Origin: Hyphomicrobiales bacterium
GTDB taxonomy: Bacteria > Pseudomonadota > Alphaproteobacteria > Rhizobiales > Rhizobiaceae
Length of the DNA stretch: 64,000 nt
NCBI GenBank assembly: GCA_017305835.1
Contig: JAFKJY010000042.1
Location: 36,110 to 100,109, forward strand
Reading direction: 5' to 3'
The notes under the pieces are model-generated. The model was not told the DNA's origin. It searched no databases and saw nothing but the letters and a program-made list of their open reading frames with translations. Both the position numbers and the translations under genes were made by a program. Of this stretch, positions 2,946 through 48,755 are shown in pieces. Position 1 is the first letter of the stretch, and each line of letters begins with the position of its first letter.

Positions 2946-3020
2946 GCGCCCATCGTCTATCGGTCAGGACGCCACCCTTTCACGGTGGAGAGAGGGGTTC
3001 GATTCCCCTTGGGCGTACCA
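2946..3020 (+). tRNA. tRNA-Glu(TTC)
   Basis: Acceptor GCGCCCA/TGGGCGT, anticodon arm CCACC-CTTTCAC-GGTGG, T-loop TTCGATT, encoded CCA. Confidence 0.97.
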
Positions 3021-3021
3021 T
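3004..3021 (+). repeat. attL core TCCCCTTGGGCGTACCAT
   Basis: Exact 18-bp copy at 48738-48755; corresponds to the tRNA 3' end. Confidence 0.92.
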
Positions 3022-9667: not shown

Positions 9668-9674
9668 CATTCCG

Positions 9675-10292: not shown

Positions 10293-10294
10293 GG

Positions 10295-11557
10295 CTAGAA
10301 CGTGCCGCCGTCGATCGTCGCGGCCGCGATGGTCGCCACGACGTTGGCCGTCGTCGCGATCTGCGTCGTGTTGGTGCCGGCCGCGGCCGTCGGCGCCACC
10401 GGCGTGCCGTCGAGCGTCGGCGACGTCAGGGTCTTGTTCGTCAGCGTCTGCGCGCCGGTCAGCGTCACGGCGCCGTCGATGTTCGTCTGGATGATCGACC
10501 AGTTCGAGCCCACGGTGGCCTGGTTTCCGCTCGACGTCCCGTCGGTCAGGCAGAGCAGGATGTCGCCGGCCTCGACATTGACGCCGGAGCCGCCTCCGAT
10601 CTTGCCAGCCACGCTGACGCGATAGGTGTCGCCGGCATTCGCGGCCGGGTAGTTCGGGTTGGCCGAGCAATCGAGGACGCCCTTGAACACCATCGCGTCG
10701 TTGGCCGCGATCAACCCGTCGGCATAGGCCTTCACCGCCTTCTGCGTGGCGATCTTGCTGTCGCTGTTCGCCGACAGCGACGTGTCGGTGTCGATGACGC
10801 CGGAGGCGAAGTCGGCCACCTCGAGGTTCGATATCGCGTTGCCGGTGCCGTTGGCGTCGAACGTCTTGTTCGTCAGGGTCGCCGTCGACGAGGCTGTGAG
10901 GTAGGAGCCGGCCGCCTGGTAGAGGCTGTCGAAGTACGTCTTCAGTGTCGCCTTCAGGTTGGCGAAGGTCAGCTTCTTCAGGACGTTCGAGGCCGCGCTG
11001 TCGATCAGGCCGAACTCGTCGGCATCCACCGGCGTCGACTTCGATGTGGCGCCGTGCATTGTCGAACCGACATTGCCGGCGTCGGTGACGTCGGCGCTCG
11101 CCTCGATGCCGGAAAGCTTCGTCTTCTCAGTGGCCGTGAAGACCTTGTTCGTCGTACCGTCGACATGGTTGTCGGCGTCGAACGCGTCGGCCTCGACATT
11201 GTTCGGATCGTAGACCGACTTGAGCATGTCGCCGCCGCCGGCGCTCGACACGCTGTCGTCGACATACTTCTTGTTCGCCACCTCGTAGCTGGACGTGGGC
11301 GCGGTCGACGGCGTCACCGGGAAGTCGGAGAACGTCTTCACGCCAGCCACGGTCTGCGCGCTCGTCTTGTCGACGAAGGCGCCCTTGCCGCCGATCGGGA
11401 TGACCGACGTGGCATTGGCGCTGCCGTCGTCTCCCTTGCCGTAATAGAGCGTGTCGTCCTGCTCGTTATAGGCCGGCTCTGCCGACAGGAGCGAAGACGG
11501 CGCGCCTGCGGCTCCGCCGGCCGCGCGCCGCTTCATGCGGATCAAGTTGTTCGCCAT
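10295..11557 (-). CDS. Tail fibre protein
   Basis: IRMKRR...EPAYNEQDDTLYYG N-terminus, ANKKYVDD and TLTNKT repeats, ends IDGGTF. Confidence 0.7.
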   Translation of the reverse strand: MANNLIRMKRRAAGGAAGAPSSLLSAEPAYNEQDDTLYYGKGDDGSANATSVIPIGGKGAFVDKTSAQTVAGVKTFSDFPVTPSTAPTSSYEVANKKYVDDSVSSAGGGDMLKSVYDPNNVEADAFDADNHVDGTTNKVFTATEKTKLSGIEASADVTDAGNVGSTMHGATSKSTPVDADEFGLIDSAASNVLKKLTFANLKATLKTYFDSLYQAAGSYLTASSTATLTNKTFDANGTGNAISNLEVADFASGVIDTDTSLSANSDSKIATQKAVKAYADGLIAANDAMVFKGVLDCSANPNYPAANAGDTYRVSVAGKIGGGSGVNVEAGDILLCLTDGTSSGNQATVGSNWSIIQTNIDGAVTLTGAQTLTNKTLTSPTLDGTPVAPTAAAGTNTTQIATTANVVATIAAATIDGGTF

Positions 11558-12112: not shown

Positions 12113-12580
12113 CTATCCGTTGTCGGACTTAGGCGCGACCTGGATGATGGCGGTCGTCGTCCTACCGACGACGAGCATCACGTCGCTGGGGTCGAGCACC
12201 TGGTTGGCGCTGCCATTGAGGTGCGCGTTGGTCCGGTCGATGGTGACTGCCGAAGAACCGATGTTCCTGAATTGGTAGGTCTTGTTGACCACCGCGTTGG
12301 AGAACGTGGAGATCGTCGCCGGAGACGCGTAGTCGAAGGTCACGACCTCGACGTTGGCAAGGTCGAGGCTCGTGCCCGAGGTCTTGGCGAGCACGCGCGG
12401 CGCGGGATAGGCAACGGCTGCGGCTACCTGATCGTCGACGTACTTCTTCGTCGCCGCGTGAAGGTCGACGGTGGGAGCACCGAACAGCGTCAGCGCGCCG
12501 GTCATCGTGCCGCCGGCCTTCTGTAGATAGCCGGCAAGCGAGCTGCCCAGCGACCAGAGGTTGAGACGTGGAATAGCCAT
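12113..12580 (-). CDS. Tail fibre-like protein
   Basis: LQKAGGTMTGALTL...AATKKYVDD fibre motif. Confidence 0.6.
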   Translation of the reverse strand: MAIPRLNLWSLGSSLAGYLQKAGGTMTGALTLFGAPTVDLHAATKKYVDDQVAAAVAYPAPRVLAKTSGTSLDLANVEVVTFDYASPATISTFSNAVVNKTYQFRNIGSSAVTIDRTNAHLNGSANQVLDPSDVMLVVGRTTTAIIQVAPKSDNG

Positions 12581-12591
12581 CTTATTGCCCT

Positions 12592-15039
12592 CTATGCCCA
12601 GGCGTCTCGGCCGTTGCCGGATGCGTCGGAATACTCAGTGCCCGCACCGCGGAAGTCGGAGGCGTAACTTACCGAAGCCGAGCCAGCGACGCGGAGACCG
12701 TAAGCAGGCGCGTAAGTGCCGGGATCAAGGACATTGCCCACGACGACCGCCCTCCCGCCGTAGTCGGAGGTCATGTAGATGCAGGCCGTGCCTGCCCCGC
12801 CCGCGGCGCTCATCCGGGAGAAGATGTTGCCGTTGAGCGCCAGCGTCCCCGAGCCCAATCCGACGACAATGCCGTAGCCGACCCAATTGGTGATGATGTT
12901 GTTCGCCACGATCGTCTGGTCCGCGTAGACGTTGACGTGGATGGGAACCGAAGCGGTGCTCGGCGTAGCATTGCCATAGCCGCGGATGACGTTGCCCGTC
13001 ACGACGAGCTGCCACGAAGTCCCGAGTGTGCCGCTGGCGCCGCCCTGAACCGTGATCCCGAGCGCAGGGGTCACGCCGGCCGAGGTGCCGTCGGGAAGCC
13101 TCGTATCGATGATGTTTTTCGCGATGATGTTCTGGTAACCGGCATAGCTCGCCGCTGAGCCTGAACTGTTGCCGGCCATGATGCCGTACTTGCAGGCATA
13201 GATCTTGCAGTTGACGAACGTCATCTGGTAGCCGCCGTGGAAGTCCAGCGCCTCCCAGATCTGCGGTCCGATGAACGTGGTGCCGTCCACGTTGCAGTCG
13301 ATCGGGAAGTGGTTGTTGGCGCGCGGTGTGCCGGCGTTTGGATCGCTGCTATAGCCGACCGTGTCGTGCGTGAGCGCGCAGCCATAGGCGTTGCTGCTTA
13401 TGCCGACGGCATCCAGCATGACGATCGAACCGCCGCGCATCCGGAACCGCTGTGGCGATTCCATCATCAGCCCGGCATAGGCGATGTCCCAGAGATGACA
13501 GTCCTCGAAGACGACGTCATCAGCCCACCGCGTCCACACGCCTTGTAGCCCGGCGCCGTGGATCTTGCAGCGATAAAAGCCCATCCCGACGGCACGGTCT
13601 GTGCGCGACGTGCCCTGCTGGCGGACGATGTCGTGCGCGTTGACCGCCGTACCTTTGCCGCCGCCTCCCGAGAGCTCGACTGCGACCCAGGTTACCCGAG
13701 CCGATTTGCCCACGGTGATTTGGGCGCCATCGTCATCCTTGTCGCTCGACAGATGGCCGCTCCAGACCGTGCAACCGGTATCGATCGTGAGCGTCGTGTA
13801 TTTGTAGGTCTTCGCCTCGAGGTAGATGACGACACCGGCGGCAATGTCGTCGAACATCGCCTGCAGCGCATCAGTGTCGTCGGTCGTACCGTCGCCCACG
13901 GCGCCGTAGTCGGACGGAACGACAAGACCGCCACGCGAGACCGCCGTTTCGAGGTCGGCAAGCACGTCCGCAAGAGTGTTCCCCTCGCCGTCGACGACCA
14001 TCGACGTGGTCGTGACGCCGAGCGGCACGATCTCAAAGACATCCCAGTCGATCGGCACGCCGTCGCCGACCGCCTCGCTGAACGACAAGGCGCCAGCTGA
14101 CAGCGTGTAGCCGCTCGTTATGCGGCGCCCGTCGATATAGATGTGGGTGTTGGCCGCTTCGGCCTCGTCCGGCAGCGTGAAGTCGGTCTCGACACCGTCG
14201 CTGACCGCGCTGCCGCTGTTGATCGTTCCGGCCACCTGGGTGGCGTCGACCCATCCCGTGCCGTTCCAGCGGCGCATGAGATCGGATGTAGTGTTCGTGT
14301 AGAGTTGGCCCGTTACCGGGCTTCCGCCCGCGGCGGCCGTCGCCGCAGCATCGTTGGCGAAGGCGCCGAGATAGAGATCCCGGATCGCGGCAAGAGCAGC
14401 CTCGGCGGCCGCCTGCACCGCGGCAGCATCGCCGTAGGTGAAGAAGCGGTAGGCGCCGTCCTCGTCGATCTGGACGAGCGCGGCCATGCCGGCAATGACG
14501 TAGTCCGCCGGGATCGGGTCGCCGATATTGGTGACGATGGCGCGCGGCGTCTCCCCATTGATGGCGAGCGTCATCGCCCCCGAGTTCGTCGCCGTGAAAT
14601 TGACCGAGACTAGCGCGCGGTAGGGCTCGGTCGCGAAGGTGGCGTCGACCGTCGCCTGCACCGCATTGGCGGTTCCGGTGCCGGTATTCAGCGCGTGGAT
14701 GATCGCCGCCGGCAGTCCCCCGACCCTTCTCCAGCCGGCAGGCGACGCCGACCAGATGAAGGTGCCCGTATTGGCGACGGTACCGCCGACGACCGGATCG
14801 GTGTGCGTGCCCGCGTCCGGGCCGTAGACCTGCGCCGGCTGGCCCGTATGCGCGCCCGTGATCGCCGACAGCCCCGACCACGTCACCTGGTCGATGCGCC
14901 CGACGACCGCGCCGTCGAGCGCCCGCTCCATCTCGGTCGACCAGACGACGGCCTCGCCATTGTCCACCTGCCGCGGATTGCCTGCTGCATCGCGGCCGGC
15001 AAAGACGTCCTTGCCCAGCTTCGTCAGGGGAAGCGTCAT
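12592..15039 (-). CDS. Tailspike with parallel beta-helix (pectate-lyase-like depolymerase) domain
   Basis: DYGAVGDGTTDDTDALQ cap motif followed by repeated N-x-I/G-N-x-I beta-helix rungs. Confidence 0.8.
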   Translation of the reverse strand: MTLPLTKLGKDVFAGRDAAGNPRQVDNGEAVVWSTEMERALDGAVVGRIDQVTWSGLSAITGAHTGQPAQVYGPDAGTHTDPVVGGTVANTGTFIWSASPAGWRRVGGLPAAIIHALNTGTGTANAVQATVDATFATEPYRALVSVNFTATNSGAMTLAINGETPRAIVTNIGDPIPADYVIAGMAALVQIDEDGAYRFFTYGDAAAVQAAAEAALAAIRDLYLGAFANDAAATAAAGGSPVTGQLYTNTTSDLMRRWNGTGWVDATQVAGTINSGSAVSDGVETDFTLPDEAEAANTHIYIDGRRITSGYTLSAGALSFSEAVGDGVPIDWDVFEIVPLGVTTTSMVVDGEGNTLADVLADLETAVSRGGLVVPSDYGAVGDGTTDDTDALQAMFDDIAAGVVIYLEAKTYKYTTLTIDTGCTVWSGHLSSDKDDDGAQITVGKSARVTWVAVELSGGGGKGTAVNAHDIVRQQGTSRTDRAVGMGFYRCKIHGAGLQGVWTRWADDVVFEDCHLWDIAYAGLMMESPQRFRMRGGSIVMLDAVGISSNAYGCALTHDTVGYSSDPNAGTPRANNHFPIDCNVDGTTFIGPQIWEALDFHGGYQMTFVNCKIYACKYGIMAGNSSGSAASYAGYQNIIAKNIIDTRLPDGTSAGVTPALGITVQGGASGTLGTSWQLVVTGNVIRGYGNATPSTASVPIHVNVYADQTIVANNIITNWVGYGIVVGLGSGTLALNGNIFSRMSAAGGAGTACIYMTSDYGGRAVVVGNVLDPGTYAPAYGLRVAGSASVSYASDFRGAGTEYSDASGNGRDAWA

Positions 15040-15079: not shown

Positions 15080-17272
15080 TCAGGGATCTGGCGTGTGGAA
15101 TACGAACTCGTAGTCGTAGGCGGGACCGGCCGTCCCGTTCGAGCTGTAGGCGATGATCTGGTAGTTCACCGCCTCGCCCTCCACGTCGACGACGGGCGGA
15201 GACGGATCTTCCATCACGTAGGCGGTACCCGGTCGGGCATTCTGTTGGTCGACCTGCTCCCATGGGCCGTAGTCGCTGCCGCCGTCGATCCGATAGCGCC
15301 GCCTGAGCCGCATCTCCACGGCGCTGAGCGAGCCGATGGTGACGTCCGAAAACGTCCCGAGGCTGCCGAGGCTGCCGACCTCGGGAGCAGCAGGAGCGCC
15401 GTTGGCGAGCGCCAGCGTGATGTGGACGGTCGGCGACCAGTCCGAAGGGTTGTCGTCTGCATCGAAGGACTGCACGCGCAGGTCGGCCTGCGTGCCGGGT
15501 GTGCCAGCGGCCGCATAGGCGAAGTACGGCCCCCTCACCTCGTCCATCGAGGACCATGCGTTCGGATTGCCGGCCGTGTAGGTCCGGTAGATCGCCTGCT
15601 CTGCCGAGGATACGACGTCGACGCTGTAGGGGAAGCGAATCTCATAGGCGCCGGACGGATATCTCACCAGGATCGGCGTTCCGGCCATCGGCGTCGGCAC
15701 CTCGCTTTCGTAGACGATCTCCGGCACCTGCTCCGGCGCCGGCACTTCCATCGTCGCCGGGTTCCACGGCTGGCCGATCAGTTCGGCCGGCCAGACCGCA
15801 TAAGGTATCTCCACCTGACCGTTCGCGTCGTCGATCCGCGGCGGCGCCAGCTTGCACAGCGGGCTTTCGTCGAGGTCCGGAAACTCGATGTTGGCGTAGC
15901 TGCGCCCCCATGCCCACAGCCCGTCCCAGTTCGTCACCGTGCGGCCAGTATCGGCCCGCGCCAGCAGGAACTGTCGGCGAGCGAGGCGCTGCGCCTGGGA
16001 AGCCGACGGGCAGAACGGCAGCTTGATGTCCAGCAGCTTCTCGCCGTAGCGGTCGATCTCCGCGTCGACCCTCGCCCACGCCGCGCCGGTCAGGTCGATG
16101 TCGGCCATCTCGTAGTTGCGCTCGGCCGAGTAGTACTGCACGCGGCAGAGATTGGGCCGCTCCACCGCCTCCGGTCCGCTCTTCCAGTCCCACTCGCCCG
16201 CGTGAAGGACCGGCAGCGTGCCCTCGCTGGCCGGGCTGTCGTCGACGAGCCGGATCCTGATCTTGCCGTCGTCCGAGGTCTGAATCTCGGCGCCGACGCT
16301 GTCGAGCACCTGCTGCATCGTGTCGCCACGCAGAGATTCCGACAGCCAGACGCCCGAGCAGCGCGAGCGTGGCTCGGTGCCGCTCCGCGTGGCGACGAGG
16401 GCGTCCGCCTTGTCGGCTTCCGCCGCGATGTCGGTCCAGTCGAAGTCCGCGGCCGTCAGCTCCGGGTAGCGCATCATGATCCGCGCCGCGCACAGGATGC
16501 CGTTCTGCGACCACCTCCAAGTTGCGCGACTGGTCGGGCTCTGCGTCCCGTCGCGCGGGTCGTAGCAGGTGTCGTAGCGCCCGATGATCGCGACGTCCGG
16601 CTCGCCGCCCTGGAAGAGCTTGTTGAACTTGGCGATGCCGTCCTCGCTGTCGAGGCCCGGCGAGATGTAGCGCGCCAGCGTCTGTGCGATGCCGCGCACG
16701 CGGTGCGCCGGGGTCCACAGCGCCGGAAACTCGCTGATCAGATCCGGCCAGGCATTCTCGTCGTCGCTGCCGGCCTTGGTGAAGACGTGGATGAATGAAC
16801 CGCCGGTGTTGGCGTAGGGCGGCGACGAGACGCGTCCGTCGCCTTCCACGACGACCGTCCGCCCGCCGACGCGGTATTCCTCGATTGCGACCAGCGGTCC
16901 CCGCGCATGCGCGATAAGCCGGTAGCGGCTGTTCGTCTTCGTGTTGCCGAAGACCTTCAGCCCGCCCAGCAGGCAACGACCGATCGCATTGACCTCGGAT
17001 GCCTCCGTGCTCTCGAAAACGCTGCGATACTGCCCGGGATCAGCCACGCGCTGCTGCTGCCCACCGCCAAGCAACCCACTGCCGAGCAAGGAAACGCCGA
17101 CGCTGAGCGCGATGGATAGGCCGGTGTAGATGGCCGAGAACGAAAAGACGCTGCCGAGCGCACCCGAGAATAAGGTGTATGCAAGCGGCGTGATTACGAA
17201 ATCCGCCCGGGCGTGCGCCGTCATCGCCAGCAGCGACGCACCGCCGGCCAGGGCAATCTTGAACCACTTCAT
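15080..17272 (-). CDS. Tail tip / host-specificity (hub) protein
   Basis: 730 aa after minor tail genes; IGRYDTCYDPRD, WSQNGILCAA, RPNLCRVQY patterns. Confidence 0.7.
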   Translation of the reverse strand: MKWFKIALAGGASLLAMTAHARADFVITPLAYTLFSGALGSVFSFSAIYTGLSIALSVGVSLLGSGLLGGGQQQRVADPGQYRSVFESTEASEVNAIGRCLLGGLKVFGNTKTNSRYRLIAHARGPLVAIEEYRVGGRTVVVEGDGRVSSPPYANTGGSFIHVFTKAGSDDENAWPDLISEFPALWTPAHRVRGIAQTLARYISPGLDSEDGIAKFNKLFQGGEPDVAIIGRYDTCYDPRDGTQSPTSRATWRWSQNGILCAARIMMRYPELTAADFDWTDIAAEADKADALVATRSGTEPRSRCSGVWLSESLRGDTMQQVLDSVGAEIQTSDDGKIRIRLVDDSPASEGTLPVLHAGEWDWKSGPEAVERPNLCRVQYYSAERNYEMADIDLTGAAWARVDAEIDRYGEKLLDIKLPFCPSASQAQRLARRQFLLARADTGRTVTNWDGLWAWGRSYANIEFPDLDESPLCKLAPPRIDDANGQVEIPYAVWPAELIGQPWNPATMEVPAPEQVPEIVYESEVPTPMAGTPILVRYPSGAYEIRFPYSVDVVSSAEQAIYRTYTAGNPNAWSSMDEVRGPYFAYAAAGTPGTQADLRVQSFDADDNPSDWSPTVHITLALANGAPAAPEVGSLGSLGTFSDVTIGSLSAVEMRLRRRYRIDGGSDYGPWEQVDQQNARPGTAYVMEDPSPPVVDVEGEAVNYQIIAYSSNGTAGPAYDYEFVFHTPDP

Positions 17273-17673
17273 CACGAGAGCGCCCAGACCTTCTCGAACT
17301 GCCGCACCGGCCCGAACCAAGCGAAGCCGCCCTCGTCGCGCCTGATGGCGAGGATGCGGCCCCGCGCGAGGATGCCGCCGACCTGCCCGTAGAGCCGCGT
17401 GTCGACCACGGCGACGTCGCCGAGCTCCGGCTCGCCGAACCGCTCGACGATGCCCGTGCTTGCCAGGAAATGATCCCATGCCGCGACCAGGCTGCCGTGC
17501 GATGCCACGATCGCATGCGCCTCGTCCCTGCTGGCATAGGCGGGCAGCCGCACGTCATGTCCCAGCCGACGCGCCCACATGCACGGCGTGGCCGAGCAGT
17601 CCGACCGGCCCCATACCGGCGGCGCGGCGTTCTCCTCATCGAGGAAGGCGCGCAGTTTGGCCTTCAGGTCCAT
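17272..17673 (-). CDS. Tail assembly protein (DUF6950/NlpC-P60-like)
   Basis: VWGRSDC motif, GDVAVV; position before tail tip. Confidence 0.6.
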   Translation of the reverse strand: MDLKAKLRAFLDEENAAPPVWGRSDCSATPCMWARRLGHDVRLPAYASRDEAHAIVASHGSLVAAWDHFLASTGIVERFGEPELGDVAVVDTRLYGQVGGILARGRILAIRRDEGGFAWFGPVRQFEKVWALS

Positions 17674-28850: not shown

Positions 28851-30551
28851 TCAGGCGACCAGGAAACCGCGCTCGCGGTAGACGGAATTTCCGTAGGCTT
28901 CCGGATTCCAGCTCATCAGGATCGCGGCGCAAAGCATGGCGATCACCGGGTCGATTTTGGCGCGGCCGGCGGCCTGCTTGGTCGCCATGTTGCCGTTTCC
29001 CTTGACCTCGATCTTCACGTTGCCGACCGACCAGGCCATCAGGGCCGACCCGTCGTGACTGAGCGTGTCGTCCGACAGCTTGTGTTCGAGGCCCCACAGC
29101 GCCGGCGAGAGCGCCGGACCCTGGCGAAGGCGGTGCAGCATGGCGCCGTCGATTTGACGAAGCGCCAGCGCGTCGACGAAGGCAGCGATGTTGTTCGGAT
29201 CGAAGCCGACCGCGTTCTTATCGGGCAGCAGGCCGGCATCGCGGACCTTCGCGGCGATCTCCGCGATGCGGGCGACATATTCGCTCACCTCGCAGAAAGT
29301 CAGCGAGCCCTCGGCTTCGAAGTCCCGCAGGCGCGAGGCGATCTCCTTGCGGACCTCGAGCACCTTCGGGTGGGCGAAGGCATGGCACCAGACCAGCCAG
29401 CGCCGCGTCACCTTCTCCCGGCCAATGACGCAGGCGCCGAACAGGTCGTCCAGGCCACCGCCGTCGGCGCCGACCACGGCGACCTCCGACCGCGCGATGA
29501 GCTCTTCCAGCGTCAGCGTCTCGTCGGCACGGAGATCCCAGAAGTCGGCCCCGCGCCAGCCGTCATCACCGAGGCCGACGCCGATCTCGATGTTGAGGTG
29601 CTGGCTGGCCCATATCTGCTCGGCTTCCGGCGTCGCCCGGCCGTTGTTCTCGTAGTCCGCGACGAGCCGCTGCGGATCGATCGACCGATTGATGTTCGGC
29701 AGCAGGATGTGCCAGTTCCTCTGGTCGCGCCAGAAGGCCTGATCCTTCTGGAAACTGGCCGGAAACTCGTAGAGCACCGGCAGCAGGATCGGCGCGCTGC
29801 CGCCCCTGCCGTCGCGGATGGCGCGGGCTTTTTGCAGCTCGGTCTTCCAGATGCCGGCCGGCGGCTCGTCCGACTGGGTGGTGATCATCAGCACCTGTCC
29901 GCCCTGCTTGGTGATGCCGCCGCCGCGGATCTGTTGCATGACGGCGGCCGCCTTCGCCTTCTTCCCGAGCTCGTGCAGCTCATCGATGATGGTGAGGACG
30001 GGAATCTCGCCCGTGACGATCGAGGTGTCGAAGGTCTTGACGTCCAGACGCGTGCCGGTCTTGCGGCGGGTGATGCACTTCAGATGGTCCTGCACCTTGA
30101 AGATCGCGTCGAGCGTTGCGTCGAGACGGATCATTCCCTGCGCCTGGTCGAAGCAGCGCTCCGAGATGTTCTGGCTCGGCGCCACGATCAGCATCTGGCG
30201 GTTCGGCGCCTCCTCCATGAACAGCGCCGTCAAACCGAGCGCGGCGACGTAGGTCGTCTTCGAGTTCTTCTTCGGCACCATGCACAGCAGTTCGACGACG
30301 AGACGCTGCTTCGTCTCGGGATCCTCGCTCGCCAGGAATGCGACGAGGATGTCACGGAACCATTCGCCACATGCTTCCGCGAGAGGCGGGTTGCCGGGAA
30401 CGTCCGGAAGCCGCAGCCGGTTGAAGAACGCCAGCGCCTTCGCTGCCCGGTCGGCGTTGAGCGGAACCTCCGCCATGGGCATCTGGCCGCGCTGCAGCCG
30501 GTCCCACCAGTCCGGACATGCGAACCGCGGCAGCACCTCAGTGGCGGGCAT
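28851..30551 (-). CDS. Terminase large subunit
   Basis: Walker A VPKKNSKT, Walker B IIDELHE, nuclease DGGGLDD and KIDPVIA. Confidence 0.93.
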   Translation of the reverse strand: MPATEVLPRFACPDWWDRLQRGQMPMAEVPLNADRAAKALAFFNRLRLPDVPGNPPLAEACGEWFRDILVAFLASEDPETKQRLVVELLCMVPKKNSKTTYVAALGLTALFMEEAPNRQMLIVAPSQNISERCFDQAQGMIRLDATLDAIFKVQDHLKCITRRKTGTRLDVKTFDTSIVTGEIPVLTIIDELHELGKKAKAAAVMQQIRGGGITKQGGQVLMITTQSDEPPAGIWKTELQKARAIRDGRGGSAPILLPVLYEFPASFQKDQAFWRDQRNWHILLPNINRSIDPQRLVADYENNGRATPEAEQIWASQHLNIEIGVGLGDDGWRGADFWDLRADETLTLEELIARSEVAVVGADGGGLDDLFGACVIGREKVTRRWLVWCHAFAHPKVLEVRKEIASRLRDFEAEGSLTFCEVSEYVARIAEIAAKVRDAGLLPDKNAVGFDPNNIAAFVDALALRQIDGAMLHRLRQGPALSPALWGLEHKLSDDTLSHDGSALMAWSVGNVKIEVKGNGNMATKQAAGRAKIDPVIAMLCAAILMSWNPEAYGNSVYRERGFLVA

Positions 30552-38385: not shown

Positions 38386-38913
38386 TCACCCGTTCGCCGC
38401 CAGCCAGGCGCCGACCTCGTCGGAGGAAGCGCCGAGTGCCGCGGCAATCGCGCCAGCGTCCGCGCCGCCGGCGCGCATGCGCGCGATCAGCCGACGCTCG
38501 TCGGCCTCGAAATGCGGGATCTCGACATCGGCCGAAGGCCGCAAGGGCGACCGCCCGTCGCGCGTCGTCGCGCGCCCCGCCGGAGCGACAGGAGGCGAAG
38601 CCTCCGGTACGTCGCGCGAGGCATAATCCTCTTCCACGAGAGCCCCGACGATCTCGTCGAGCAGATCCTCGTTCCACCACCTCGCCTTGCGGGCGTTGTT
38701 GAGGTGCGCCGAGGCGGCGGCCGGCGAGATGAAGGCGCAGCAGCGCGACAGCCCGGCCTTGCGCGCCTGCGGCCACGCCTCCGTCAGCGCGGCATAGGCG
38801 AGCACGCGGCTGCGTCCGCCCGGCACGCCGGACGCGATCGACAGCGGATCGTCGCCGTGGAACCGCGCGGCCATGACGATGGCCGTGGCTATTCTGTCGG
38901 CCGAGGGGAACAT
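38386..38913 (-). CDS. Hypothetical protein
   Basis: 175 aa between cII and methylase, C-terminal HTH-like segment. Confidence 0.55.
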   Translation of the reverse strand: MFPSADRIATAIVMAARFHGDDPLSIASGVPGGRSRVLAYAALTEAWPQARKAGLSRCCAFISPAAASAHLNNARKARWWNEDLLDEIVGALVEEDYASRDVPEASPPVAPAGRATTRDGRSPLRPSADVEIPHFEADERRLIARMRAGGADAGAIAAALGASSDEVGAWLAANG

Positions 38914-39395
38914 CAGGCCTGCCCCTCGCGCATGACGACCTTGAGGCCACCTTCCGCGCGGCCGGCTGCAGCCGAGCGCTTGCCCTTCACGAGCGCGCGT
39001 TCGAGCCGCTCCATGACGCGACTGAGGTCTGTCAATTCGTTCGGAGTCAGCTTGCCGTCGGCTACCGCCGCACCAAAGACGCCTCCGAGTTGCCCGGAGA
39101 CGACGAGCACCTCCGCCATCGCGGTCATAACGCAGGTCTCGCCTTCGGTGACAGGATCGGACAGCATGCGTCCGTCAATCGCGGCGAGAGCCGCCGTAAC
39201 CACCGGCACCCGGCACTTCTTCTGCAGCGCGATCACCGCAGGCCATGGCATCAGCGTCGGATTCCCGACGTCTGCCCAACGGCCGATCGTGCTGCGCCCG
39301 TACGGCACGATCACCTTGCAGTCGTCGATGCCGCCGCAAAGCCTGACGAGCTCGTTCTGAGCATGCTTGATCATCATGTGCTCGTCGGGGGACAT
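38913..39395 (-). CDS. CII-like regulatory protein
   Basis: LVRLCGGI...STIGRWAD, DGKLTPNE pattern; position after cro. Confidence 0.65.
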   Translation of the reverse strand: MSPDEHMMIKHAQNELVRLCGGIDDCKVIVPYGRSTIGRWADVGNPTLMPWPAVIALQKKCRVPVVTAALAAIDGRMLSDPVTEGETCVMTAMAEVLVVSGQLGGVFGAAVADGKLTPNELTDLSRVMERLERALVKGKRSAAAGRAEGGLKVVMREGQA

Positions 39396-39590
39396 CTCGG
39401 CCTCGCATGCGCGCGCGATCCCGTGGCGGGACAAACACGCGAAAAATCCCCTAGTGGGACGCAACGGATCGATTCACAGTGCGGGCATGGAAACCCGCGG
39501 ACACATCAGCCGGTCACGGCGGCGCGTGAGGCATCGGCAGGAGGCCCAAGGGCGCCTCCTGCCGACCCGGCTCGCTCTCACAGGTGTGGG

Positions 39591-39665
39591 TGGTTGCGGG
39601 GGCGGGATTCGAACCCGCGACCTCTTTGCTTTGAGGCTGGCGAGCTGCCGCTGCTCTACCCCGGC
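39591..39665 (-). pseudogene. Degenerate tRNA-fMet-like element
   Basis: Intact D-arm, T-arm GCGGG-TTCGAAT-CCCGC and CCCCGCAACCA end; anticodon stem unpaired, loop CTCAAAG. Confidence 0.75.
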
Positions 39666-40290: not shown

Positions 40291-40367
40291 AAGGTACAAA
40301 TCATACCTCAATCTGTCAAGCACGCAGGATATGATTTGTATCCTTGCCGCCGGGTATCTTTTGTACC
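40291..40367. promoter_or_regulatory. OR-type switch: PR promoter and three operators
   Basis: Minus strand TTGACA-N17-TACCTT; GRTA-N7-TAYC operators at 40293-40307, 40328-40342, 40353-40367. Confidence 0.85.
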
Positions 40368-40814
40368 ATGGCCAACGATCTAGAGAAATTTGACAAGCAA
40401 GAGCGCGCGAGCCGGCTGAAGCAGGCGAGGATGCGCGCTGGCATTTCGGGACCAAAGGGAGTGTATGACGCCTCTGGAGGCGCCATCGACATCAACCTCT
40501 ACAAAGGTCATGAATCGGGCCGGAATGCTTTTTCGGTAAGCGAAGGTCGGCGCTATGCCGATCTGTTCGGTGTGCCTCTCACTTGGCTCTACCTCGGCAT
40601 CGGCAGACCGGAGGACGTCGGACTGCCCGGCGCTTCAAAAGAGCTGCGGCAGGCCTTTGCGAAAGTGATCGACGCCCCTCAAGGCGTACAGGATCAGGTC
40701 ATCAGTTTCATAAGGTTCGCGGTTGGCCAGGCTCAGGAGCCTTCGCAATCACCACAAGACCAACACCGTGATCAACATGAACGCGCCAATCGCCACCGTG
40801 CAATAGCGCCATAG
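40368..40814 (+). CDS. CI-like XRE repressor without S24 peptidase domain
   Basis: RLKQARMRAG...HESGRN...YADLFGVPLTWLYLG; only 148 aa. Confidence 0.8.
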   Translation: MANDLEKFDKQERASRLKQARMRAGISGPKGVYDASGGAIDINLYKGHESGRNAFSVSEGRRYADLFGVPLTWLYLGIGRPEDVGLPGASKELRQAFAKVIDAPQGVQDQVISFIRFAVGQAQEPSQSPQDQHRDQHERANRHRAIAP

Positions 40815-40956
40815 CGACGGCAATCTCTGCCGTCTTCCGTTTGACAACGATCTTCGGGTCCATGGGCGGGGCAGCTCCGGCCGCCTCTCTTAGCTCAGCG
40901 ATGATCTCGTCGTTGCGAGTTGCGAACCTTTGCCGGAGCTGGTGCCTGATCGCCAT
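40708..40956 (-). CDS. Small LexA-controlled protein convergent with cI (candidate antirepressor)
   Basis: 82 aa, GGAGG RBS, LexA box ~50 bp upstream. Confidence 0.55.
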   Translation of the reverse strand: MAIRHQLRQRFATRNDEIIAELREAAGAAPPMDPKIVVKRKTAEIAVAMALLHGGDWRVHVDHGVGLVVIAKAPEPGQPRTL

Positions 40957-41002: not shown

Positions 41003-41017
41003 GAACATACGCGGAAC
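41003..41017. promoter_or_regulatory. LexA (SOS) box
   Basis: GAAC-ATACGCG-GAAC, adjacent to a minus-strand TTGACT. Confidence 0.75.
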
Positions 41018-43109: not shown

Positions 43110-43338
43110 GTTCTCCGAGCTTTCAGGCCGTTGGGCCGCAGATCTCGGCAATGCGATCTCCGACGCGATCCACGCAGCGCTGTTGCGTGGAATGGAAACG
43201 GACGAGGCAGCCTGCATCGCGGTCTCCGTGGCGGCCGACTATGCCCGCGCCGAATATGGCGACGCATATCTGCAAGACTTGGCAAAGGTCGTCGTCATGC
43301 GAGCCGGCCGACCGATGCCGGAGGATGCGTCGACATGA
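43102..43338 (+). CDS. Hypothetical protein
   Basis: 78 aa, coupled. Confidence 0.55.
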   Translation: MAEFSELSGRWAADLGNAISDAIHAALLRGMETDEAACIAVSVAADYARAEYGDAYLQDLAKVVVMRAGRPMPEDAST

Positions 43339-43616
43339 CCGTCGCCCGCCACGAGGGCCGATTGCAGCTCTGCTGCGACGGCTGCCCCGCGTCCTTCCCC
43401 GAGACCTACGAGGCCGAGGACTTCGCCACGATGATCGCCGACGCCAGGGCGGCGGGCTGGCGCATCGTCAAGCGCCAGTTGCCGGCCGAGCCGGACACGA
43501 GGGGCCTGTTCGGCCGCGCGCCCCGCATCGCCGGGCCGCGCCGCAAGCCCGAGCCCTACAGCCACACCTGCCCGGCCTGCCTCGCGCCCGCCGAGCCGCA
43601 CGGATCGCTGCTGTGA
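43335..43616 (+). CDS. Zn-finger-like hypothetical protein
   Basis: CCDGC ... HTCPAC. Confidence 0.55.
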   Translation: MTVARHEGRLQLCCDGCPASFPETYEAEDFATMIADARAAGWRIVKRQLPAEPDTRGLFGRAPRIAGPRRKPEPYSHTCPACLAPAEPHGSLL

Positions 43617-43643: not shown

Positions 43644-44510
43644 ATGCAGACTGACATCGTCCGGCCGCAGGCCGGCCTGCCGATCTTCCGCGCCGAGGGG
43701 CGCGACCGGCTCTTCCTCCGCGCCGGCGCGCAGATTGCCGGTGCGGACAGCCGCGCCGACGCCGAAACCGAGATCGCCCTGCCCGAGTTCGCCGCCGGCA
43801 CGGACTATCTCATTCGCAGCGATGCCGGCGCTCTCGTCGTCGCGCCGGCCGGCGCGGACCTGGCCGACGCGATCGGCGGCTTCCATTTCGCGCCGGGCGA
43901 CAACGCGTCCGCCCGCGCCGGCGGCGACGACGCGCCGGCGATCAACCCGTTCTCGATCTGGGACGCCGGCTTCCGCCCGGCCTGCGATCCGCGCGGCATG
44001 GCGCTGGTCGACCTGCCCGACGGCCGACGTCTCTGGGTCGACATCTACCTGCTCGGCACGGACCATCTGGCGCAGGGCACCAGCCGTCACGGCGCGACGA
44101 TCGCCGACGGCCACAGGAACAAGCCGAAGAAGCCGGACGGCAGCCGCCACGACGGCCTCGATTTCCTGACGGCCGTCGACATCTATGCCGGCCACGGCAA
44201 GCGGCTGCTCACCTATGACGAGTTCCGTGCCGCCGCCTTCGGCGTGACGGAGAAGAGCTCGGCCGACGACAAGCCGGAGACCGCCGGCCTCGACGCGGCA
44301 CGCACCAGCCGGTTCGGCCTGATGCAGGCGACTGGCAATCTCTGGGTCTGGGGAACCGACGGCGACCCCGACGATCCGCGCCCCTCGCTCTTCGGCGGCT
44401 CGTGGCTCAGCGGTCAGTACGCGGGCTCGCGCTACGCGGACCTCGACAGCTGGCCGGACTACTCCGTCGAGGGCTTCTCCGCGCGGGGCTGCCGTGACCA
44501 TGAATCCTGA
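43644..44510 (+). CDS. DGR target 1: Mtd-like C-type-lectin-fold protein
   Basis: AGTDY, GGFHFAPG, INPFSIWD.GFRP, DPRGM, WVDIYLLG, HGKRL, GNLWVWG, FGGSW, ARGCRDH motifs as recalled for BPP-1 Mtd; VR at C-terminus. Confidence 0.92.
   Translation: MQTDIVRPQAGLPIFRAEGRDRLFLRAGAQIAGADSRADAETEIALPEFAAGTDYLIRSDAGALVVAPAGADLADAIGGFHFAPGDNASARAGGDDAPAINPFSIWDAGFRPACDPRGMALVDLPDGRRLWVDIYLLGTDHLAQGTSRHGATIADGHRNKPKKPDGSRHDGLDFLTAVDIYAGHGKRLLTYDEFRAAAFGVTEKSSADDKPETAGLDAARTSRFGLMQATGNLWVWGTDGDPDDPRPSLFGGSWLSGQYAGSRYADLDSWPDYSVEGFSARGCRDHES
44377..44498 (+). repeat. DGR variable repeat VR1
   Basis: 122-bp match to TR with 13 mismatches, all at TR adenines. Confidence 0.97.
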
Positions 44511-44514
44511 CACC

Positions 44515-44534
44515 GCCGGCGCGAAAGCGCCGGC
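44515..44534 (+). promoter_or_regulatory. DGR target-recognition hairpin after VR1
   Basis: GCCGGCGC-GAAA-GCGCCGGC (8-bp stem, 4-nt loop). Confidence 0.9.
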
Positions 44535-44565
44535 CACCCTTCCCACACCAACCAGGAGGCCGTCC

Positions 44566-45471
44566 ATGGACGCCACAGTCAAGCAGACCCGTATCGATCG
44601 CGCCATCGCCGACGCGCCGATCTTCATCGTCACCGGCCGCGCGCGAATAGCCCTGCGCGCCGGAACCGTCATCCACCGGGACGGATTGCCGATCGCGCTG
44701 GACGGTGACCTGCCCATCTCGATCGACCTGGCCGACCTCGCGCCCGGAACGGACTTCGCCGTGCTGATCGAGGACGGCGCCGCCCGCGCGGTGCCGTGCC
44801 CCGGCGCCATCCCCGAAGGTGCGATCGGCGGCTTCCACTATGCCCCGAGCGGCAACGCAGAGGCCCGCGCCGGCGGCGACGGCCAGCCGGCCATCAACCC
44901 GTTCTCCTGCTGGGATATCGGCTTCCGCCCCGGCTGCGATCCGCGCGGCATGACGCTCGTCATGGTCGGCGGGCACCGCCTCTGGGTCGACATCTACCTG
45001 CTCGGCACGGACCATTTGGCGCAGGGCACCAGCCGCTGCGGCGCGGCGATCGCCGACGGCCGCGACCTGCCGCAGCGCGTCGACGGCAAGGGCGCCTGTC
45101 GCAAGCTCGACCATGCGACGGCGGTCGAGATCTACGCACATCACGGCAAGCGGCTGCTCGGCGCCGAGGAGTTCTTCGCCGCGGCCTTCGGCGTCGCCGA
45201 GCGGAAGTCGCTGGACGACGAGCCGTCGATCGCCGGTGCGCTGGACGGCAGGGGCGAGCGTTTCGTCAGCGCCCGCGGGCTGCACGGCGCCACCGGCACC
45301 ATGTGGCAGTGGGGCACCGACGGCGACCCCGACGAACCGCGCCCCTCGATCTTCGGCGGCTCGTGGATCGACGGTCAGGACGCGGGCTCGCGCTACGCGT
45401 ACCTCGTCGGCTGGCCGGACAACTCCGTCGGGAGCCTCTCCGCGCGGGGCTGCCGTGACCATGAATCCTGA
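44566..45471 (+). CDS. DGR target 2: Mtd-like C-type-lectin-fold protein
   Basis: AGGAGG RBS; same Mtd motifs as target 1; VR at C-terminus. Confidence 0.92.
   Translation: MDATVKQTRIDRAIADAPIFIVTGRARIALRAGTVIHRDGLPIALDGDLPISIDLADLAPGTDFAVLIEDGAARAVPCPGAIPEGAIGGFHYAPSGNAEARAGGDGQPAINPFSCWDIGFRPGCDPRGMTLVMVGGHRLWVDIYLLGTDHLAQGTSRCGAAIADGRDLPQRVDGKGACRKLDHATAVEIYAHHGKRLLGAEEFFAAAFGVAERKSLDDEPSIAGALDGRGERFVSARGLHGATGTMWQWGTDGDPDEPRPSIFGGSWIDGQDAGSRYAYLVGWPDNSVGSLSARGCRDHES
45338..45459 (+). repeat. DGR variable repeat VR2
   Basis: 122-bp match to TR with 12 mismatches, all at TR adenines. Confidence 0.97.
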
Positions 45472-45475
45472 TGCC

Positions 45476-45495
45476 GCCGGCGCGAAAGCGCCGGC
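45476..45495 (+). promoter_or_regulatory. DGR target-recognition hairpin after VR2
   Basis: Identical GCCGGCGC-GAAA-GCGCCGGC. Confidence 0.9.
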
Positions 45496-45515
45496 CGCCT
45501 GAACGGGGCCGACCG

Positions 45516-45881
45516 ATGATCAGGGACAATCCGGCCAGCACGACGGGGCTGGCGATCATGGAGAGATACGAGGCCGCGATGGCCTATCTCTATCCGATCG
45601 TCCAGCGCTTTCCGCGCCGCCACGGCAAGCTGCGCGACGCGCTGCTGGACACGATGATCGCTGAGGTCGGCCTCATCTATCACGCGGCGAAGTCGCGGCA
45701 GGCCTCGCGCCTGCACGCGGCCGACGCCAATCTAGCGACGCTGCGTTTCTGGTTGCGCTTCGCGGCCGATCCCTCGCTCAAGATCCTCTCGCCTGCCCAG
45801 CACAGGGCCGCCCTGCGGCTCCTGGCCGAGGTCGGCGCGATGCTCGGCGTCTGGATCGCCTCCACGAAGGGCAACGGGTGA
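45516..45881 (+). CDS. avd: DGR accessory variability determinant (four-helix bundle)
   Basis: ERYE...YLYP...PRRHG, ADANLATLRFWLRF, EVGAMLGVWI; position between VR and TR. Confidence 0.93.
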   Translation: MIRDNPASTTGLAIMERYEAAMAYLYPIVQRFPRRHGKLRDALLDTMIAEVGLIYHAAKSRQASRLHAADANLATLRFWLRFAADPSLKILSPAQHRAALRLLAEVGAMLGVWIASTKGNG

Positions 45882-45896
45882 ACGGGGATAGGATGG

Positions 45897-46018
45897 CGCG
45901 CCCATCGATCTTCGGCGGCTCGTGGATCAACGGTCAGAACGCGGGCTCGCGCTACGCGAACCTCGACAACTGGCCGGACAACTCCAACGAGAACATCTCC
46001 GCGCGGGGCTGCCGTGAC
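45897..46018 (+). ncRNA. DGR template repeat TR
   Basis: 24 adenines, 7 in-frame AAC codons; 3' end diverges (GACCCATTT) from the VR IMH (CATGAATCCTGA). Confidence 0.96.
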
Positions 46019-46306: not shown

Positions 46307-47308
46307 ATGGCCAAGAAGTACCGCAACCTGATCGGCCGTATCGTGGCCGACGACAACATGCTGGCCGCCTACCGGCGCACGGCTGCCGGCCGGCGTCTCT
46401 CGACCGGCTACCTTGAGTTCAAGGAATTCTCGCCGCTCAACCTCGATCGGCTGGCGGCCGACATGGCGAGCGGCGCCTATCGGCCGGGCGCGCAGCGCGA
46501 GTTCATGATCTACGACCCGAAGCTCCGGCTGATCTCGGCGCTTCCCTTCCGCGACAGGGTCGCGCAACATGCGGTCTGCCGCGTCATCGAGCCGATCTTC
46601 GATGCGACGCTGTTGCCACGCAGCTTTGCATGCCGGAAGGGCAAGGGCACGCATGCCGGCGTCGTCGCGCTGCAGGCCGAATTGCGGCGCCTGACGCGCG
46701 ACGGCGCGTCGCTCTATGCGCTGAAGACGGACTTCTCCCGCTACTTCGCCTCGATCGAGCGGCCGGTGCTCTGGCGCATGATCGAGGCCAAGATTTCCTG
46801 CCGCGCGACGCTGCGCGTCATCGAGGCGATGGTTCCGCGCGAGGGCATCGGCCTGCCGATCGGCAACCTCACCTCGCAGATCCTCGCCAACGTCTATTCC
46901 GGCGCCGTCGATCGTCACCTGCAGCAGGGCCTCGGCGAGCGCTGCTGGTATCGCTACATGGACGATCTCGTCGTGCTCGGCCGGTCGGTCGCGCATCTGC
47001 GCGCCGTCCGCGACGAGATCGAGCGGCTGGCCCGCGAAGAGCTCGGCCTCCGCTTCTCGAAATGGTCGGTCCAACCGATCAGCCGCGGCGTCAATTTCCT
47101 CGGCTACCGCATCTGGCCCCGCCACAAGCTGCTGCGCCGTGACAGCGTCGCCCGCGCCAGGCGCAAGATCGCCCGCTACCGCGCCGCCGGCGACACGGCC
47201 CGCCTGGAGCAATTCCTGTCTGCGTGGACAGGCCATGCGTCGTGGGCCGACACGCGCAACCTGCTGGCGAGCCTCGGCGTCGGAGGTCGCGATGGCGCTG
47301 CATCCTGA
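46307..47308 (+). CDS. DGR reverse transcriptase (BPP-1 Brt-like)
   Basis: 333 aa; FRDRVAQHA, ACRKGKGTHAG, KTDFSRYFASI, GLPIGNLTSQ, RYMDD, VNFLGYRI; GGAGG RBS. Confidence 0.96.
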   Translation: MAKKYRNLIGRIVADDNMLAAYRRTAAGRRLSTGYLEFKEFSPLNLDRLAADMASGAYRPGAQREFMIYDPKLRLISALPFRDRVAQHAVCRVIEPIFDATLLPRSFACRKGKGTHAGVVALQAELRRLTRDGASLYALKTDFSRYFASIERPVLWRMIEAKISCRATLRVIEAMVPREGIGLPIGNLTSQILANVYSGAVDRHLQQGLGERCWYRYMDDLVVLGRSVAHLRAVRDEIERLAREELGLRFSKWSVQPISRGVNFLGYRIWPRHKLLRRDSVARARRKIARYRAAGDTARLEQFLSAWTGHASWADTRNLLASLGVGGRDGAAS

Positions 47309-47546
47309 CGGTCTCGCCTACCCGCCGCGCGGCATGTCGCGCGAGGAGGCGGCGCGCTATATCGGCGTCGGCACGACTAAGTTCGACCAGCTCGTCGCCG
47401 ACCGCCGCATGCCGCGCCCGAAGCAGATCGACGGGCGTGTGGTCTGGGACAGGGTCGCGCTCGACGCCTGCTTCGCGGAACTGCCGAGCGAGGCCAGCGT
47501 CAATCGCATCGACGAGTTGCTTGCAAGAGCCGGCCAGCGGAAATAG
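47292..47546 (+). CDS. Excisionase-like (AlpA/MerR-type HTH) protein
   Basis: PRGMSREEAARYIGVGTTKFDQLV...PKQIDGRVVWDR; directly before integrase. Confidence 0.85.
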   Translation: MALHPDGLAYPPRGMSREEAARYIGVGTTKFDQLVADRRMPRPKQIDGRVVWDRVALDACFAELPSEASVNRIDELLARAGQRK

Positions 47547-47555
47547 CGTCCGGCC

Positions 47556-48668
47556 ATGGACGATTATCCCGGCCTCGGCTCCTACCTCGACCGTCACGGC
47601 ACGCGCCGCTGGCGCTATCGCCACAGAGGCAGGACGGTGTCCTTGCCCTGCGGGCCCGGCGAACCCGGCTTCGACGAGGCCTATCAGGCGGCTGTCGAGG
47701 GACGCCCCATCCGCAAGGCCGAGATCACGGTCCATCCTCACGCCGCCGCCCCTCGGTCTCTGGCGGCAGCCTGGAGGCTGGTGCGCCAGTCGGCCGAATG
47801 GCAGGTGCTGGACGATCTGACCAGGGCGAACACCACGCGCGTCGCCGAGCGTTTCCTGCTGTCGCCGGTGATCGAGGGCGAGCCTGATCTCTGGAGCGAC
47901 ATGCCGGTCGCAGACGTCAAGCGGCGGCACATCAAGAAGATCCTCGCCGATCGTGCGGCGACGCCACACGCCGCCAAGAACCTACTGACGCTCATCCGCA
48001 AGCTGATCCTCGCGGCCCTCGACGAGGAGTGGATCGAGGCTGACCCGACCTACCGGGTGAAATGGCGGCCGGCCTACGTCGGATTCCGCGCATGGACGGC
48101 CGACGAGATGGCTGCATTCGAGGCGCGCTGGGCAGTCGGCTCGACCCCGAGGCTCGTCTATGCCCTGGCCCTCTGGCTGGGAAACAGGCGTTCCGACCTG
48201 GTGCGGCTCCGGTGGGACCAGCTGGTCGAGCGAAAGCTTCTCATCGACGGCAAGATCGAGACGCTGCGCGGCTTCCAGATCGTGCAGAAGAAGACGGGCA
48301 AGGTTCTGTTCGTGCCGGAAACCCCGATGCTGGCGGAGGCTCTGGCGGCGACAGTGCGGCGAGGCGAGACAGTCGTCGTGACGGCCTATGGGGAGCCGTT
48401 CACCGCCAAGTCGATTACCGGACGCATGGCCGACTGGACGCACTCGGCCGGCCTGCCGAAGGGCTGCACGCTGCACGGTTTACGCAAGACGCTGGGCAAG
48501 CTCCTGGCCGAGGGCGGCGCATCTACCCGCCAGCTCATGGACGTACTCGGCCACGACGACATGGAGCACGCGGAACTCTACTCGCGCGAAGCGAACCAGG
48601 TCCTCCTCGCCGCCGCCGGCATGGAGCGCGTTGTCACGCTCGTCGGCAAGCGTAAGGTCGCCAGATGA
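47556..48668 (+). CDS. Prophage tyrosine integrase
   Basis: GNRRSDL, HGLRKT, LGH, LYS catalytic residues; 70 bp from attR. Confidence 0.93.
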   Translation: MDDYPGLGSYLDRHGTRRWRYRHRGRTVSLPCGPGEPGFDEAYQAAVEGRPIRKAEITVHPHAAAPRSLAAAWRLVRQSAEWQVLDDLTRANTTRVAERFLLSPVIEGEPDLWSDMPVADVKRRHIKKILADRAATPHAAKNLLTLIRKLILAALDEEWIEADPTYRVKWRPAYVGFRAWTADEMAAFEARWAVGSTPRLVYALALWLGNRRSDLVRLRWDQLVERKLLIDGKIETLRGFQIVQKKTGKVLFVPETPMLAEALAATVRRGETVVVTAYGEPFTAKSITGRMADWTHSAGLPKGCTLHGLRKTLGKLLAEGGASTRQLMDVLGHDDMEHAELYSREANQVLLAAAGMERVVTLVGKRKVAR

Positions 48669-48737: not shown

Positions 48738-48755
48738 TCCCCTTGGGCGTACCAT
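48738..48755 (+). repeat. attR core
   Basis: Exact 18-bp copy of 3004-3021. Confidence 0.92.

Follow-up and report, generated by a model that had tools for sequence, protein, structure and literature searches.

Tandem Mtd-like targets of a diversity-generating retroelement in a rhizobial prophage lack the N-terminal domain of BPP-1 Mtd

The stretch of DNA considered here (the window) comprises 64,000 nucleotides from a Hyphomicrobiales bacterium of the family Rhizobiaceae (assembly GCA_017305835.1, contig JAFKJY010000042.1, positions 36,110 to 100,109) and carries, within a prophage, a diversity-generating retroelement (DGR) with two tandem target genes, T1 and T2, whose products are relatives of Mtd, the receptor-binding target protein of phage BPP-1, without its N-terminal domain. 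The targets are followed on the same strand by the accessory gene Avd, the template repeat (TR) and the reverse transcriptase (RT) gene (Table 1). The variable repeats (VR1 and VR2) form the last ~40 codons of T1 and T2, both target frames are intact, and TR and the VRs part ways beyond position 122. Because all differences between TR and the VRs fall on TR adenines, both targets have been rewritten by the DGR. The genome is a metagenome-assembled genome from a bioreactor, and VR1 and VR2 each keep one sequence in the contigs of four sequencing runs from 2016-2020, a comparison made on Logan contigs, which drop rare variants. At 45369/45370, within VR2, the assemblies of runs X5 and X6 break, and those of X1 and X9 are contiguous; the breaks could reflect VR2 variants in the sample.

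The two target genes are well delimited. AAGGAG lies 7-12 nt 5' of the T1 ATG and AGGAGG precedes T2, both being strong ribosome-binding sites, and T1 cannot be longer because an in-frame TGA stands 9 codons before its start. The sole earlier start for T2 is a GTG at 44494, which would add 24 low-complexity residues, rich in Pro, Ala and Thr, that overlap the 3' flank of VR1. Neither frame has room for a hidden N-terminal domain. No hydrophobic N-terminus was found in the first 50 residues, where the highest 15-residue Kyte-Doolittle mean is 0.69 in T1 and 1.08 in T2. The sizes and starts, the strong ribosome-binding sites and the lack of a signal peptide are as described in the first-pass annotation, which had been made from the sequence alone. 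In both proteins 9-12 residues precede a module consisting of a beta-sandwich and a C-type lectin domain. T1 and T2 are most alike in the VR-encoded part (75% identity), less so in the lectin domain (66%) and least in the sandwich (47%).

Sequence comparison places both proteins close to Mtd. In a phmmer search, Mtd was the only match of T1 and T2 among all PDB sequences, with residues 13-286 of T1 corresponding to Mtd 65-377 and residues 10-299 of T2 to Mtd 57-377 (E 2e-46 to 4e-43). The BPP-1 Mtd gene was retrieved (381 aa) and its product aligned to T1 and T2 with MAFFT, and in this alignment nothing in T1 or T2 corresponds to residues 6-51 of Mtd. Against Pfam, T1 and T2 match PF21916 (mtd_2nd) only, with 29.2 and 26.9 bits at a cut-off of 24.6, and neither matches PF18454 (Mtd_N) at E up to 0.1. 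BPP-1 Mtd, used as a positive control, gives both families, Mtd_N, the N-terminal beta-prism, at residues 5-41 (E 1.3e-16) and PF21916 at 66-169.

Structural models lead to the same picture. The AlphaFold2 model of T2, built with 114 homologues, has a mean predicted local distance difference test score (pLDDT) of 88 and a predicted template-modelling score of 0.88; disorder is limited to residues 1-3, the first sandwich strand is formed by residues 8-11, and the mtd_2nd sandwich reaches a pLDDT of 93-97. Foldseek superposes nearly the whole of this model on Mtd 1yu3 (E 2.7e-27, template-modelling scores TMq 0.86 and TMt 0.70), and TMq is 0.84-0.86 across 1yu0-1yu4. The T1 model is weaker (pLDDT 69), from a shallower alignment and poor in the VR-encoded part, and it yields the same unique match to Mtd with TMq 0.70-0.72. 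MAFFT, phmmer and Pfam agree that the N-terminal domain of Mtd is missing from both targets, as had been proposed, and the T2 model agrees for T2; an equivalent N-terminal domain was sought in the MAFFT alignment and in the T2 model, and none was found. The proposed sandwich-plus-C-type-lectin architecture is likewise borne out for both proteins by the mtd_2nd matches, by phmmer alignments that extend to Mtd residue 377 and by Foldseek. T1 and T2 are shown to be true relatives of Mtd that combine its second-domain sandwich with a slimmed C-type lectin domain and lack the Mtd_N prism.

T1 and T2 depart from Mtd in a further respect, one that the first-pass annotation did not mention. Each lacks three more segments of Mtd, residues 286-293, 313-317 and 322-334, the last of which is most of the beta2-beta3 loop, including Tyr322 and Tyr333. 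In Mtd, these two tyrosines reach the binding site of the neighbouring protomer and the loop braces the trimer (PMC2408619). Because this loop is largely deleted, the formation of trimers by T1 and T2, even of homotrimers, is not to be assumed. The anchor role of Mtd_N in BPP-1 is itself presumed (PMC10743442), and Mtd has been localised to the ends of the fibres (PMC2408619, PMC5758913).

The short form extends well beyond this locus. T1 has 876 homologues at E ≤ 1e-5, those with names including proteins of Mesorhizobium, Rhizobium, Agrobacterium, Shinella, Bradyrhizobium and Rhizomicrobium. Among the matches listed, all 120 of the 120 nearest homologues are short, most of them 280-330 aa long, with the same start and with mtd_2nd at most; of two longer entries among those listed, P0082 results from a gene call that takes in a MazG-like gene, and P0080 is extended at its C-terminus, not its N-terminus. 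The N-terminal extensions of near relatives that seem longer were rejected, since they stem from gene calls fused with an upstream methylase, ParB or MazG gene or from overprinted frames rich in Arg. The public gene calls P0141, P0123 and P0082, in which T1 relatives are fused to DNA methylase, ParB-like and MazG-like genes, are probably such merges, and as merges they provide an independent sign of an early-gene neighbourhood. Every relative found sits in a prophage or a viral contig. No short form was found among the isolated phages of the phage collection, in which the BPP-1 group is nearest at 38% identity, or in BFVD, which holds longer proteins only. In L017, L089/L090, L096, L097 and L138, an extra short Mtd-like gene lies 2-6 kb from the cassette and represents either a remote target or an orphan copy.

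The wider Mtd family is far more variable in this respect. Its representatives, taken as 50%-identity clusters and searched exhaustively, have N-termini of 0 to >700 residues; among the best 150, the number of residues before the T1-equivalent start is ≤25 in 29, 26-70 in 12, 71-150 in 19 and >150 in 84, so that the sandwich-lectin module is mostly the C-terminus of long fibre-like proteins. Ten long relatives were tested for Mtd_N, and none carries it, while all carry mtd_2nd. Across the wider Mtd family, Mtd_N is thus not conserved. In a maximum-likelihood tree, the short proteins form a clade of 53 rows, nearly all alphaproteobacterial, with support of 100/99 and apart from the BPP-1-like clade. 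The lack of Mtd_N is an architecture of this whole clade and no peculiarity of one locus. Within Rhizobiaceae, first-position and second-position paralogues fall into separate well-supported clades of the same tree, from which it follows that the tandem T1/T2 pair is old and has been maintained in fixed order; the separation also implies non-redundant roles for the two proteins.

The cassette belongs to a siphovirus-type prophage integrated in tRNA-Glu, and the two copies of an 18-bp direct repeat (Table 1) probably represent attL and attR, bounding a DGR-holding prophage of ~45.7 kb. Packaging, head and tail genes, including those for the major tail protein, the tape measure and the distal tail protein (Dit), occupy the minus strand from ~31 kb to 9.7 kb. 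The repressor gene of the switch region is immediately followed by a terminator-like hairpin (40816-40834), and no plus-strand terminator is predicted between this hairpin and the integrase gene, for which reason the targets are assigned to a same-strand string of genes that runs from ~41.1 kb to the integrase. We infer an operon structure for this string, which occupies the position of a lambdoid early-left operon. The divergent region before it contains a GAAC-N7-GAAC box (41003-41017), which has the form of an alphaproteobacterial LexA site. The tRNA-like element at 39591-39665 is not a canonical tRNA gene, because ARAGORN calls no tRNA there. Directly upstream of T1 lies a zinc-ribbon-like open reading frame (ORF), in the same reading frame as T1 and parted from it by just a TGA and 9 codons. 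It has no Pfam or NCBIfam match, and its homologues occur beside about 14 related cassettes, just 5' of the first target or 3' of RT. As it recurs beside some related cassettes and not all, it is no established part of the cassette.

Table 1. Features of the prophage and its diversity-generating retroelement, in coordinates of the window
Feature	Position	Strand	Remarks
tRNA-Glu	2946-3020		only ARAGORN call in the window
probable attL	3004-3021		18-bp repeat TCCCCTTGGGCGTACCAT at the 3' end of tRNA-Glu
fibre protein, 205 aa	9675-10292	-	
fibre protein, 420 aa	10295-11557	-	
fibre protein	12113-12580	-	
beta-helix spike	12592-15039	-	
J-like fibre	15080-17479	-	
large terminase, putative	28851-30551	-	from position and from tblastn matches beside portal/head homologues in related loci
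CII-like gene	38913-39464	-	switch region
repressor	40344-40814	+	switch region
93-aa CxxC...CxxC (zinc-ribbon-like) ORF	43335-43616	+	directly upstream of T1
T1, first DGR target, 288 aa	43644-44510	+	beta-sandwich and trimmed C-type lectin, without Mtd_N
VR1, 122 nt	44377-44498	+	13 differences from TR, all at TR adenines
T2, second DGR target, 301 aa	44566-45471	+	anciently diverged paralogue of T1
VR2, 122 nt	45338-45459	+	12 differences from TR, all at TR adenines
Avd accessory protein	45471-45881	+	PF22296 bAvd, E 3.5e-26; NCBIfam NF033474, 109.9 bits (cut-off 80)
TR	45897-46018	+	its 23 adenines match variable codon positions
DGR reverse transcriptase	46307-47308	+	PF00078, E 3.7e-17; 68-78% identity to RTs of related cassettes
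excisionase-like ORF	47292-47546	+	overlaps the end of the RT gene; homologues adjoin integrases in related loci
tyrosine integrase	47556-48668	+	PF00589; last gene of the same-strand string
probable attR	48738-48755		18-bp repeat TCCCCTTGGGCGTACCAT just beyond the integrase

Related cassettes, with one to three tandem short targets, Avd, TR and RT, were found at 39 genome loci and 78 IMG/VR loci. Their surroundings were searched by tblastn with the proteins of the window over 10 kb on either side of the target, a detection that rests on likeness to the proteins of one phage, among which tail proteins diverge fast. Early markers such as CII, ParB-methylase and repressor genes were detected at 22 of the 39 genome loci and 49 of the 78 viral loci, an integrase or excisionase at 4 and 8, and terminase, portal or head genes, located 5-6 kb downstream on the same strand, at 2 and 4; tail genes were found at 0 of the 39 and 0 of the 78. 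When all ORFs up to 3.5 kb from the cassette were clustered without bias and compared with Pfam, the families obtained were DUF5131 at 29 loci, a small zinc-ribbon protein at 15, MT-A70 methylase at 14, DUF7220 and the sliding clamp at 12 each, integrases at 10 and 7, C5 methylase at 10, ASCH at 9 and the single-stranded-DNA-binding protein SSB at 5. The DUF5131 genes, of the phage Gp37/Gp68 type, lie mostly 3' of RT (e.g., L122:14215-15354 and L013:14215-15354) and are absent from this window, where the excisionase-like ORF and the integrase gene take that place. Members of the BPP-1-like clade have structural genes upstream on the same strand: the fibre gene bbp9 in BPP-1, a tail fibre gene in L034, the major head and major tail genes in L036, a J-like fibre gene in L037 and the major head gene in L038. 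Because the BPP-1-like members sit behind structural genes, the move to the early region is a derived trait of the short clade.

A separate source of the missing domain was also sought. No Mtd_N (PF18454) was found in the 5.3-Mb genome, in which the best match, on another contig, has an E of 0.74, and Pfam searches at E up to 10 returned none either from the distal tail proteins or from the small ORFs that precede T1. The 205-aa protein has the modular build usual for fibres: proteins that end differently, some of them in Phage_depo_C, share its first ~60 residues at 78-89% identity, and its last ~145 residues are found in many proteins that differ from it in length. In ten genomes the 40 kb 5' of the cassette were compared with this phage; three have its Dit, tail-protein and J-like set, and the rest have just distant terminase/portal genes in common with it, or almost nothing. 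A target without N-terminal extension is nevertheless found in a tail module in L037 (Opitutales), where it occupies 10004-10984 and is directly preceded by a 113-aa fibre-like ORF (9630-9971), with the J-like fibre gene further upstream. Because this extensionless target sits in a tail module, Mtd_N is dispensable for a tail context and docking without it becomes plausible; the 113-aa ORF and the target may form a natural adaptor-plus-tip arrangement. The first-pass annotation had offered a choice between anchorless soluble binders and subunits that need a separate adaptor. Of this proposal, the missing Mtd N-terminal domain stands; results that bear on the choice are the absence of Mtd_N from the genome, the lack of a conserved partner gene beside the cassette and the early or integrase-side position of the cassette here and at the related loci.

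The reading tentatively preferred here is that T1 and T2 may serve as accessory receptor-binding proteins whose attachment to the virion does not depend on Mtd_N. They would be made in the cytoplasm when the early-left string is transcribed, at induction or infection, and would persist until tail assembly to act as diversifiable accessory receptor-binding proteins; docking on a tail or fibre protein might occur through the apex of the sandwich or a short N-terminal strand rather than an Mtd_N prism. In both targets the last ~40 residues are rewritten by the neighbouring Avd and RT with a single TR as source, and the two paralogues would provide two independently variable specificities. This reading is preferred because homology to a proven receptor binder extends over the full length, the structural sandwich is conserved, the relatives are strictly phage-borne and L037 offers a comparable arrangement; the lack of an export signal fits the cytoplasmic assembly of virions. 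The intact frames with adenine-only changes, the strong ribosome-binding sites, the usual place of the module at the end of long fibre-like proteins and the separate paralogue clades also speak for it. Runs labelled 'RNA?' that match an Agrobacterium relative were considered as evidence of transcription and set aside, since their contigs of 26-34 kb behave like DNA. Several observations weigh against a place on the virion. Besides a J-like fibre and a beta-helix spike, the phage already encodes three other fibre proteins, and the targets are antisense to the late operon, even after circularisation, and ~32 kb from the distal fibre genes. Across the 117 loci, tblastn detected no homologue of the tail genes of this phage within 10 kb of the target; the neighbours are instead CII, ParB/MT-A70 methylase, sliding clamp, SSB, C5 methylase, HNH, DUF5131 and integrase genes. 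ORF clustering at 39 and then 109 loci revealed no cassette-linked adaptor, Avd and RT alone being near-universal. Structural modules differ among the ten prophages with the cassette, in which no counterparts of the present distal fibre genes were found bar one partial match, as judged by tblastn, which is weak for fast-evolving fibres.

The main rival explanation, a possible if less probable one, is that T1 and T2 are instead soluble binders that never join the virion. They would then constitute a self-contained, DGR-diversified lectin module, expressed with the early and integrase-side genes and acting inside the induced or lysogenic cell or after lysis, where possible roles include the binding of competing-phage or host defence proteins and the coating of cell surfaces or debris. 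The uniform early-gene neighbourhood without tail-gene neighbours at the 117 loci, in contrast to the position of BPP-1-like members behind head and tail genes, speaks for such binders, as do the occurrence of the cassette in prophages with differing structural modules and no conserved partner, the loss of Mtd_N together with most of the beta2-beta3 loop, and the existence of anchorless stand-alone DGR variable proteins (PMC6328139; PMC10743442). However, a non-structural Mtd homologue would be without precedent, and T1 and T2 have neither an effector domain nor an export signal, so that extracellular ligands would be met only after lysis. Moreover, the sandwich, which is structural in Mtd, is kept across the clade, and the argument from context depends on tblastn with the fast-diverging tail proteins of a single phage. 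For the short alphaproteobacterial clade as a whole, it is likewise possible, if less probable, that the proteins are no virion component and instead form a portable, DGR-diversified soluble binder module that travels with the early or integrase-side genes of temperate phages; such a phage-encoded hypervariable, 'antibody-like' lectin would operate intracellularly or once the cell has lysed, with superinfection exclusion, counter-defence and the conditioning of cell surfaces as examples of its role. An improbable arrangement is a split adhesin, in which the 420-aa fibre and the 205-aa protein would supply the anchor in trans. Both begin, by eye, with an I-x-x-R...GE...D-like pattern, and the shared N-terminal ~60 residues of the 205-aa protein are typical of an anchoring module. 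The resemblance of these starts to Mtd_N was rejected as a visual pattern only, since PF18454 matches neither protein at E up to 10 and BLASTP with Mtd 1-60 returned nothing; both proteins also have complete C-terminal domains of their own, and they are not kept in the other cassette-bearing prophages, with a partial match in 1 of 10. An explanation of the short length by artefact or decay, through mis-called starts or 5'-truncated pseudogenes, is refuted for practical purposes. Maximal ORFs of some relatives do reach 50-130 codons further upstream in this high-GC DNA, but these Arg-rich extensions run into the gene before and show no conservation; the in-frame stop before T1, the common start of the short homologues and the adenine-only changes in the VRs, which show the genes to be in use, all contradict it. 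Functions beyond the readings weighed here are given a small probability.

Comparison with known systems places T1 and T2 nearest to BPP-1. They match BPP-1 Mtd in the sandwich domain and in a C-type lectin fold that has the VR at its C-terminal end, with 38% identity over ~275 residues, and the cassette resembles that of BPP-1 (mtd-avd-TR-brt) in its target-Avd-TR-RT order, its adenine-only mutagenesis and its residence in a temperate phage. In contrast to BPP-1 Mtd (PDB 1YU0-1YU4, 2IOU), T1 and T2 lack the prism and the three further Mtd segments named above; there are two tandem paralogous targets rather than one, and the cassette is surrounded by genes for early functions and integration and runs opposite to the tail genes, whereas mtd lies directly behind bbp9. 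The absence of a recognisable virion anchor is shared with other variable C-type lectins, namely TvpA of Treponema denticola, TaqVP of Thermus aquaticus (5VF4) and the gut-phage targets nd4_tgt2 and nd12_tgt2, the last two of which lack both the Mtd sandwich and the prism (PMC10743442; PMC6328139). T1 and T2 differ from these four in having retained the Mtd sandwich and in their close sequence relationship to Mtd; TaqVP is a marginal structural match to the T2 model (Foldseek E 0.25), and TvpA and TaqVP are cellular, whereas T1 and T2 are phage-borne. The same C-terminal sandwich-lectin module also occurs in the tail protein of Marinomonas phage P12026, in Mtd of Synechococcus phages S-CBS1 and S-CBS3 and in most of the 50%-identity representatives, but these fibre-fused modules are extended N-terminally by 70 to >700 residues, with no Mtd_N in the ten tested. 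Among surveys of DGR targets, Wu et al. listed 12 Mtd-like proteins among 372 targets and called them 'similar in size' to Mtd (PMC5758913), and Benler et al. reported five Mtd-like targets in prophages (PMC6199706); neither paper mentions N-terminal domain loss or a non-tail location. No description of the short clade or of rhizobial DGR prophages was found in the literature searched.

Mtd homologues are routinely annotated as tropism determinants by analogy, and to our knowledge Mtd is the only phage DGR target with an experimentally shown function. Set against this background, the present locus represents a large coherent clade (876 matches at E ≤ 1e-5; 117 loci) that lacks the presumed anchor and the trimer-bracing loop and that moves as a self-contained cassette among DNA-metabolism and integration genes, not tail genes. 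If T1 and T2 do reach the virion, they would provide a second docking mode for Mtd-type receptor binders; if they stay off it, phage DGRs would diversify non-structural binders too, which would change the interpretation of phage-borne targets. Since the cassette is present in cultured lysogens of Rhizobium, Mesorhizobium and Shinella, among them the non-pathogenic Rhizobium sp. BK602, Mesorhizobium sp. SP-1A and Shinella pollutisoli KCTC 52677, either outcome is directly testable.

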